A stretch of 7,950 nt of DNA, from positions 1-7,950 of the IMG/VR virus record IMGVR_UViG_2547132274_000015. One strand, written 5' to 3'. This DNA is from a virus (lineage: Duplodnaviria > Heunggongvirae > Uroviricota > Caudoviricetes). Position 1 is the stretch's first letter, and each line of letters begins with the position of its first letter. A program made the position numbers and the translations under genes. Shown piece by piece: positions 2,934 through 3,413 of this stretch. The notes below the pieces were generated by a model. That model saw only the letters and a list, made by a program, of their open reading frames with translations. It was not told the DNA's origin and did not search any database.

Positions 2934-3054
2934 TTCATTGCTCCAGACGAATGATATGATGCAACCATGATGTGATTGCATACCGAAATGGTACTATTGA
3001 GTATTTATCCAGTAAGTTACGATGCCATTCCACCCAATTGGTGAGGCATCAAGG
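2934..3054. promoter_or_regulatory. Divergent intergenic control region between the tailspike and mnt genes, with a candidate operator palindrome. Promoter elements are not confidently placed.
   Basis: A 121-bp AT-rich gap between two divergent start codons. It contains the imperfect palindrome ATGCAAcc...gaTTGCAT (2959-2981) and clustered ATGAT/GTGAT repeats (2951-2976). Candidate -35/-10 hexamers are weak and ambiguous by eye. Confidence 0.35.
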
Positions 3055-3315
3055 ATGTACAGCAAATACGACGAGGCGCAGTTTCACTTGAGACTTCCGC
3101 ATGAACTCCACGCGAAAATTAAGCAGCGTGCGAAGATGAATAACAGGTCTCTGAACTCAGAGATAATTGCAGCGATTGAAGAATCACTGGATAAACAAAA
3201 CTCTGCATCAGTTTACATTGACGATGCAGAGCGTATGGCAGAACAACAATCCGATATGGTTAAGAAAATTGTCTTTGATACGCTCAAAGAGCTATATAAA
3301 AAAGACAGCAGCTAA
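3055..3315 (+). CDS. mnt: Mnt-like ribbon-helix-helix transcriptional repressor (Arc/MetJ superfamily).
   Basis: The 86-aa product aligns with P22 Mnt as I recall it along its whole length: AQFHLRLPHELHAKIKQRAKMNNRSLNSEIIAAIEESLDK against PHFNFRMPMEVREKLKFRAEANGRSMNSELLQIVQDALSK, and DDAERMAEQQSDMVKKIVFDTLKELYKK against NDAERLADEQSELVKKMVFDTLKDLYKK. Start chosen at ATG 3055 (GGTGAGG 8 nt upstream), which gives a P22-like length. The ORF-track start at 3022 adds 11 residues and is less likely. Confidence 0.85.
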   Translation: MYSKYDEAQFHLRLPHELHAKIKQRAKMNNRSLNSEIIAAIEESLDKQNSASVYIDDAERMAEQQSDMVKKIVFDTLKELYKKDSS

Positions 3316-3335
3316 CCATCAGTTACGGAGGATTT

Positions 3336-3413
3336 ATGCAAAGAGATATGCTGAATATTGCGTTCTACATATTTGGTTTTTGCACGTTCCTGGTGTTTGC
3401 GAAGCTATTCTGA
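3336..3413 (+). CDS. Hypothetical 25-aa hydrophobic peptide (MQRDMLNIAFYIFGFCTFLVFAKLF), a possible small membrane protein. Not in the supplied ORF track.
   Basis: ATG at 3336 is preceded by GGAGG (3327-3331) and lies 20 nt after the mnt stop on the same strand. The ORF runs to TGA at 3411-3413. The product has a single hydrophobic helix-length core flanked by charged residues (R3, D4, K23). Its last 9 nt overlap the 3' end of the convergent gp16-like gene. Confidence 0.3.
   Translation: MQRDMLNIAFYIFGFCTFLVFAKLF

Follow-up and report, generated by a model that had tools for sequence, protein, structure and literature searches.

A lone mnt gene with both Mnt domains

The 7,950-nucleotide stretch analysed here (the window; positions 1 to 7,950 of the IMG/VR virus record IMGVR_UViG_2547132274_000015) comes from a P22-like (Lederbergvirus) prophage and covers, in reverse orientation, the right end of its late operon; it carries a homologue of the P22 repressor gene mnt between gene 16 and the tailspike gene (gene 9). 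We propose that this gene encodes a functional Mnt-family repressor with an operator of its own and that this lone cassette most likely controls its own leftward transcript, a reading to which we give a probability of roughly 0.6. An earlier inspection of the letters without database searches, hereafter the sequence-only reading, had described an orphan mnt in the place where P22 carries sieA and the immI genes mnt, arc and ant, and had suggested that the repressor might be rewired to the tailspike gene, to the small downstream open reading frame (ORF) or to a target elsewhere in the prophage. The interval from the gene 16 stop codon to the tailspike ATG (2934-3404) measures 471 bp and not the "about 530 bp" given there, but its content was described correctly, namely the mnt-like ORF and a tiny hydrophobic ORF of 25 amino acids.

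The mnt homologue (3055-3315, plus strand; 86 amino acids, MYSKYDEAQFHLRLP...) has an N-terminal ribbon-helix-helix part with the recognition strand QFHLRL and a C-terminal Mnt tetramerisation helix. Its assignment to Mnt was borne out by Pfam matches to Arc (PF03869, E 2.3e-14, residues 7-48) and Repressor_Mnt (PF11423, E 3.4e-14, residues 57-82), by matches to two solved structures of P22 Mnt in the PDB, 1mnt (E 1.3e-18) and the tetramerisation domain 1qey (E 1.6e-8), and by about 48% identity to P22 Mnt. The tetramerisation region is indeed strongly conserved, as had been stated, with 22 of the C-terminal 29 residues identical to 1qey. On these matches the protein is a Mnt homologue with both Mnt domains. 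The coordinates, the protein length and the quoted motifs of the sequence-only reading (DDPHFNFRMP for P22 Mnt and MPQFNLRWP for Arc) were also correct, and the recognition strand QFHLRL thus stands beside HFNFRM in P22 Mnt and QFNLRW in Arc. P22 Arc has the same ribbon-helix-helix fold and a similar strand, but it is a 53-amino-acid dimer without the C-terminal tetramerisation helix found in the window protein. We take the ATG at 3055 as the true start because RefSeq calls the gene there and because a Buttiauxella relative (L014) has a stop codon between this ATG and the in-frame ATG at 3022, which was rejected as a start. In the databases the QFHLRL allele is unannotated in phage IME10 (L001), misnamed in Sf101 or given the generic name "Arc family". 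The misnomer "partition protein ATPase", borne by Sf101 gp14 (L002/L011) and by several Salmonella phages, arises because phrog_795 carries that name.

The gene is under purifying selection and is not a relic, because 237 of 239 copies are intact and the ratio of nonsynonymous to synonymous substitution rates (dN/dS) against the window copy is 0.07-0.38 among 129 distinct coding sequences. Of 5426 complete E. coli genomes, 271 carry the cassette (2950-3335), and the identical 86-amino-acid protein is recorded on 645 contigs. For their own mnt-like gene, the authors of the phage L genome paper posed the question of remnant or new function (PMC8022706). A decaying, functionless remnant of immI would account for the loss of arc, ant and the antirepressor promoter Pant, and for the two truncated copies. 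We nevertheless regard it as highly improbable, given a dN/dS well below 1, the rarity of truncation, the wide occurrence of the cassette and of the identical protein, and the conservation across five genera of the operator and -10 element described below.

A distinct operator co-varies with the recognition strand

The altered recognition strand had led the sequence-only reading to expect a different operator, and one could be located. Alignment of the mnt upstream region to that of P22, anchored on the shared TATTGAG, placed a putative Mnt operator at 2980-2994 (ATACCGAAATGGTAC; consensus RTACC-N5-GGTAC), its centre lying at about -43 from the predicted mnt transcription start. The site aligns exactly at the position of P22 Omnt (AGGTCCACCGTGGACCT), directly before the conserved TATTGAG. 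RTACC-N5-GGTAC is present at every collected QFHLRL-type Mnt, from Escherichia, Salmonella, Citrobacter, Buttiauxella and Serratia (protein identity 60-64%), and at 222 loci with this type of Mnt its distance upstream of the mnt ATG is 73-80 bp, in most cases 74 or 76 bp. The QFNLRL alleles (ST64T, ST160, 720R6) carry AGACCAC-N-GTGGTCT at the operator position. Since the QFHLRL, QFNLRL and P22 types each have their own operator, three recognition strands pair with three operators, and this comparison supports the view that the QFHLRL Mnt reads a distinct operator, which co-varies with the recognition strand across Mnt alleles. Among 91 distinct intergenic variants, the columns of the operator have a mean conservation of 0.955, against 0.69-0.80 in the tailspike-proximal part. 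L016, the one locus where mnt has an early nonsense mutation, also carries a change in the right operator arm; gene and operator appear to have decayed together.

A search for TACC-N5-GGTA covered Sf101, IME10, all fetched loci and the closest complete prophage, that of E. coli G3/10, which matches the whole window at 97.2% identity and sits between ybhB and ybhC. The site upstream of mnt is the only one in the whole G3/10 prophage and likewise single in Sf101, a result that speaks against the proposed target elsewhere in the prophage. A recurrent extra site, TACCATATTGGTA, was dismissed because it lies inside the coding sequence of P22-type gene 16 and its spacer is unlike that of the operator; we judged it to be chance plus redundancy among the loci.

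The predicted mnt promoter (2997-3023, plus strand) directly follows the operator and would consist of a -35 element TTGAGT (2997-3002), a 15-nt spacer and a -10 element TACGAT (3018-3023). It aligns to the P22 Pmnt hexamers, which we take to be TTGAGA-17-TATCAT, presumably as assigned by Vershon et al. 1987. The -10 element TACGAT is invariant (conservation 1.000) in the 91 intergenic variants, and the spacer is 17 nt in the variants from Salmonella, Citrobacter and Buttiauxella. An inverted repeat GATGCC-N18-GGCATC (3021-3026 and 3045-3050) reaches from the -10 element as far as the ribosome-binding site of mnt (GAGG, 3043-3046). Loci of the QFHLRL and QFNLRL types keep its arms almost unchanged, and P22 lacks the repeat. 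Three one-sided changes were seen, all retaining G-U pairing on the plus strand; the repeat was rejected as an RNA structure since the stem, although conserved, shows no compensatory changes. No Rfam family was matched at the gathering threshold or at E <= 1. A further promoter-like match on the plus strand (2927-2955, CTGACA-17-AATGAT) was set aside, being unconserved in relatives and found by a scan whose matches occur at chance number.

arc, ant and sieA are absent

The orphan state of mnt held up in every comparison. Searches of the window by tblastn with P22 Ant, Arc and SieA returned nothing except mnt itself, which was found with the Arc query, and a panel of six Ant-like proteins had no match in the window, the G3/10 prophage, Sf101 or IME10. 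The G3/10 prophage has no annotated antirepressor, and no Ant-type domain was detected when ten of its proteins, mainly ones annotated as hypothetical, were scanned against Pfam. Sf101, which carries the same cassette, has neither ant nor arc, and both genes are absent within 5 kb of the locus in the 80 closest viral contigs. A promoter scan of the minus strand found no equivalent of Pant overlapped by the Mnt operator. Judged by its sequence, the locus has none of the features that make up immI in P22: an ant gene under Mnt, a divergent arc and a strong Pant under the operator. The interval also lacks a sieA-sized gene, its sole other ORF being that of 25 amino acids. P22 SieA resembles the genes of this slot in being a prophage-expressed membrane protein whose gene lies between genes 16 and 9 with the orientation of mnt, but the window shows no sequence similarity to it, and tblastn found no SieA-type inner-membrane protein of about 160 amino acids (P22 or HS1). 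The Pfam scan of the G3/10 prophage also revealed one protein with a Tad2-like (Thoeris anti-defence) domain; its gene (L009, 37939-38460) lies between the lysis genes and the gene for the small terminase subunit.

With no other immI gene between gene 16 and the tailspike gene, from which it diverges, mnt fits the mnt-only "ant moron" of the ST64T/L type. A survey of neighbourhoods across P22-like genomes, which the sequence-only reading had called for, showed that the mnt-only layout is common. At 34 of the 136 non-redundant loci with the QFHLRL recognition strand (about a quarter), a second, complete and different antirepressor module lies on the far side of mnt and consists of a Mnt-like ribbon-helix-helix protein of 106-152 amino acids, an Arc-like protein of 57 amino acids and two Ant-like proteins (for example L112 4510-5115, with the palindrome at 4711-4726; L016 4308-6467; L015 1072-3431). 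These are Salmonella/Citrobacter-type loci, and the operator of the module is a perfect 16-bp palindrome, TTGGTTCTAGAACCAA. Because the module has its own palindrome, the QFHLRL Mnt does not regulate its ant genes. Cross-talk with other ant modules, both this one and that of Shiga toxin (Stx) phages, was likewise rejected, since operators and recognition strands differ.

These modules bear on the idea of a protective action in trans, in which the lone Mnt would shield its lysogen by repressing the ant promoter of any incoming or co-resident phage that shares its operator. In a P22 lysogen, the established role of Mnt is directed against superinfecting P22, so this action would mirror the textbook role, and it would explain the selection on the protein and on its specificity. 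We consider it very unlikely, however, because at none of the 136 non-redundant loci do arc and ant lie between mnt and the tailspike gene, the adjoining ant modules use the other palindrome, and the ant module of Stx phages has a KFNLRF strand and different repeats. It would also leave the retention of an operator beside mnt unexplained.

The tailspike side of the locus

The tailspike gene (1221-2933, minus strand; ATG at 2933) starts with MSDITANIVV, and its N-terminus matches the P22 head-binding domain (Pfam Head_binding, E 2e-64). An ORF of 586 amino acids reaching 2981 was rejected as a mere upstream extension of this gene. At 134 of the 136 non-redundant loci, mnt and the tailspike gene are immediate neighbours transcribed away from each other. 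The gap between the two is mostly 120-147 bp, with 185 or 261 bp in two cases and about 650-730 bp where an HNH gene is inserted. The inserted gene, found in about 20 relatives, encodes an HNH endonuclease of 179 amino acids and lies between the Mnt operator and the tailspike gene (for example L020 4330-4869; also L013, L021, L022 and others); its insertion has left the first five tailspike codons (MSDIT) behind as a duplicated stub. Kapi1 has an HNH gene at the same mnt/tailspike junction.

This almost constant adjacency, kept even where a separate ant module lies on the other side of mnt, is one reason to consider that Mnt has been rewired to the tailspike gene, so that the protein bound at 2980-2994 would repress or block transcription into the tailspike gene in the lysogen. 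Villafane et al. raised the possibility that read-through into gene 9 is affected by Mnt and Arc (PMC2629481). Expression data also connect the two genes. In the LF82 prophage Gally, which has an mnt-only locus of the QFNLRL type, RNA sequencing in macrophages showed mnt up 40-fold and the tailspike gene about 20-fold, with genes 16 and 20 remaining at background (PMC9928086). The two genes thus move together and not oppositely, and such a joint rise is unlike repression. BTP1 lysogens, which lack mnt, also transcribe the tailspike gene above the other late genes. Furthermore, neither a consensus scan nor hand alignment to P22 Pant revealed a sigma-70-like promoter facing the tailspike gene. 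The positions of the Pant hexamers read ATGGCA-15-TAAATA in the window and TCGGCA-17-TATATC in ST64T, both without the essential last T of the -10 element, and they appear to show graded decay. The adjacency itself is accounted for by descent from an mnt-arc-ant-9 arrangement through loss of arc and ant. Taken with this evidence, the rewiring to a tailspike promoter offered as one option by the sequence-only reading is possible but unlikely.

Upstream of the tailspike gene, the tailspike-sense strand contains a hairpin (2959-2981, minus strand; ATGCAATCA-CATCA-TGGTTGCAT) that lies 5' of the tailspike ribosome-binding site GGAG (2944-2941). A hairpin about 25 nt 5' of that site is also found in P22 (L005, ~2075-2091) and in all relatives, with differing sequence. 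The hairpin types show compensatory changes, and G-U pairs are confined to the tailspike-sense strand. Comparison of these leaders indicates that the hairpin belongs to the tailspike mRNA leader, probably as a conserved element, and not to the Mnt system.

A conserved micro-ORF at the end of gene 16

The second ORF of the interval (3336-3413, plus strand; MQRDMLNIAFYIFGFCTFLVFAKLF) encodes a hydrophobic peptide of 25 amino acids, begins 20 nt 3' of the mnt stop codon, is preceded by a GGAGG ribosome-binding site (3327-3331) and overlaps the gene 16 stop codon. No promoter-like site was found in the 20 nt between the mnt stop and the micro-ORF, and the only upstream match on the plus strand is a weak one inside mnt (3140-3167) at chance level. 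The spacing, the GGAGG site and the lack of an intervening promoter make transcription from the mnt promoter the most economical reading, and co-transcription of the micro-ORF with mnt is therefore plausible. No intrinsic terminator was predicted 3' of the micro-ORF, and hairpins just beyond its stop codon are significant solely in BTP1. In some relatives a lipoprotein gene (phrog_6067, lipobox LVGC/LAGC) lies between mnt and the micro-ORF (L088 4344-4865, L014 4301-4684, L004 5923-6408), which suggests that the interval holds prophage-expressed cargo.

At 124 loci the micro-ORF accompanies the 3' end of an Sf6/BTP1-type gene 16, and there it is always 25 or 23 amino acids long; its 40 distinct DNA sequences encode 24 distinct peptides, with a dN/dS of about 0.1-0.3. 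It travels with this type of gene 16 and not with mnt, and occurs in Sf6 (L003 5230-5304), BTP1 (L247 14011-14082, minus strand), ST64T (L248 2823-2894), VSe13 and 720R6. The peptide is absent from a collection of 15 billion proteins, from which we conclude that the ORF has never been called by any annotation pipeline.

In BTP1, the 23-amino-acid homologue lies within STnc6030, a prophage RNA reported as a superinfection-exclusion antisense RNA (PMC7067206). Like the transcript predicted for the window, STnc6030 is a prophage-expressed RNA that crosses the gene 16/tailspike junction in antisense to the late operon and contains a homologue of the micro-ORF; the locus differs in that BTP1 has no mnt and that the RNA has its start within the tailspike gene and was taken for a non-coding antisense RNA. 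Coordinate mapping gave a distance of 477 nt from the start of STnc6030 (404727) to the stop codon of the micro-ORF (404250), which matches the Northern bands of about 480-500 nt (PMC7067206), so the RNA sizes fit an mRNA ending just past the micro-ORF. The BTP1 escape mutations (404041-404078) lie beyond the RNA end and alter gp16 residues 583-595, and P546 of P22 gp16, the site of the SieA-escape mutation P546S, aligns to residue 589 of BTP1 gp16. We infer that these positions suggest a peptide effector acting on gp16 in BTP1 exclusion. Because the band size equals this distance, the bands end before the escape mutations and the mutations fall within gp16 583-595, one may tentatively consider, as a possibility more doubtful than probable, that mnt and the 25-amino-acid ORF form a two-gene, prophage-expressed exclusion cassette. 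Mnt would autoregulate the leftward transcript, the membrane micro-protein would be the payload that blocks DNA injection by phages with a matching gene 16 protein, and STnc6030 would be the mRNA of the homologous 23-amino-acid peptide.

Genomic context

The remaining genes of the window belong mainly to the late operon on the minus strand: gene 14 (7495-7950), gene 7 (6800-7492), gene 20 (5402-6790) and the gene 16 homologue (3405-5402), an Sf6-type ejection protein with 98.9% identity to Sf6 gp13 and 33% to P22 gp16. Convergent with the tailspike gene is a gene for an O-antigen-type acyltransferase (acyltransferase-3 family, Oac-like; 1-1167, plus strand), which in E. coli G3/10 lies at the prophage end adjoining ybhB. 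On the minus, late-operon strand, mnt contains a hairpin (3148-3163; TCTCTGAGTTCAGAGA and then a T-rich tail) that weakly resembles a terminator; such matches occur at chance number in this region.

Discussion

In the mechanism that we favour, a tetrameric ribbon-helix-helix repressor, the QFHLRL specificity allele, would bind one co-evolved operator abutting the -35 element of its own promoter. In the simplest history, a P22-like mnt-arc-ant-9 ancestor would have lost arc, ant and the strong ant promoter, leaving mnt beside the tailspike leader. The remainder would be a cassette of about 385 bp (~2950-3335) made up of operator, promoter and mnt, which in the prophage would tune the amount of its own leftward transcript, an RNA antisense to the late operon. 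This transcript may also carry the ORF for the 25-amino-acid membrane peptide in the window and, in relatives, the lipoprotein gene. The transcription of a lone mnt from the Gally prophage, with its 40-fold induction in macrophages, speaks for this reading (PMC9928086).

Several points weigh against such autoregulation by a lone Mnt. We infer DNA binding, promoter use, autoregulation and co-transcription of the micro-ORF from sequence comparison. The mnt promoter is a prediction because a strict consensus scan did not pick up the site in the window, and the 15-nt spacer of the Escherichia variants is poor. Mnt at Omnt of P22 reportedly does not repress Pmnt but stimulates it indirectly by shutting off Pant; with no Pant here, the same operator geometry might leave Pmnt unaffected. 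Deletion of mnt from Gally gave no survival phenotype in macrophages in a single assay (PMC9928086). Finally, the micro-ORF is independent of Mnt, because it is present in phages without mnt (Sf6, BTP1).

Compared with known systems, the window Mnt shares with P22 Mnt the two-domain architecture, the location between genes 16 and 9, the orientation against the late operon and the placement of the operator 5' of TATTGAG and the mnt promoter. It differs in the operator, which is AGGTCCAC-C-GTGGACCT in P22 and ATACC-N5-GGTAC in the window, and in that P22 Mnt has arc, ant and Pant to control, whereas the window Mnt is without all three. Its closest counterparts in layout are the mnt-only ant morons of ST64T, L, ST104, ST160, SE1, vB_EcoP-720R6 and Gally, in which, as in the window, a lone mnt is divergent from the tailspike gene across a gap of 121-147 bp and has a symmetric operator by the mnt promoter. 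Those loci differ in the QFNLRL strand, in the AGACCAC-N-GTGGTCT operator and in a protein identity of 49-57% to the window protein, whose allele is of the Sf101/IME10/E. coli type. The novelty implied by the sequence-only reading was overrated, as mnt-only regions between genes 16 and 9 had been described as an "ant moron" for ST64T, ST104 and Para1 (Villafane et al. 2008, PMC2629481) and were also published for phage L (PMC8022706). The window mnt is a further allele of this known arrangement, real and ordinary in kind.

What the present analysis adds is a defined operator sequence, evidence of selection and a testable link to the micro-ORF. Lone mnt genes have been noted since ST64T with the question of whether they are remnants or have a new function; here, such a gene is kept by selection together with a matching operator. 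The analysis also corrects the systematic misannotation of Mnt homologues as "partition protein ATPase" and traces it to the name of one PHROG family. The unannotated, conserved micro-ORF beside gene 16 may be the true effector of an exclusion so far ascribed to an antisense RNA, which would possibly be weightier than the result on mnt itself.

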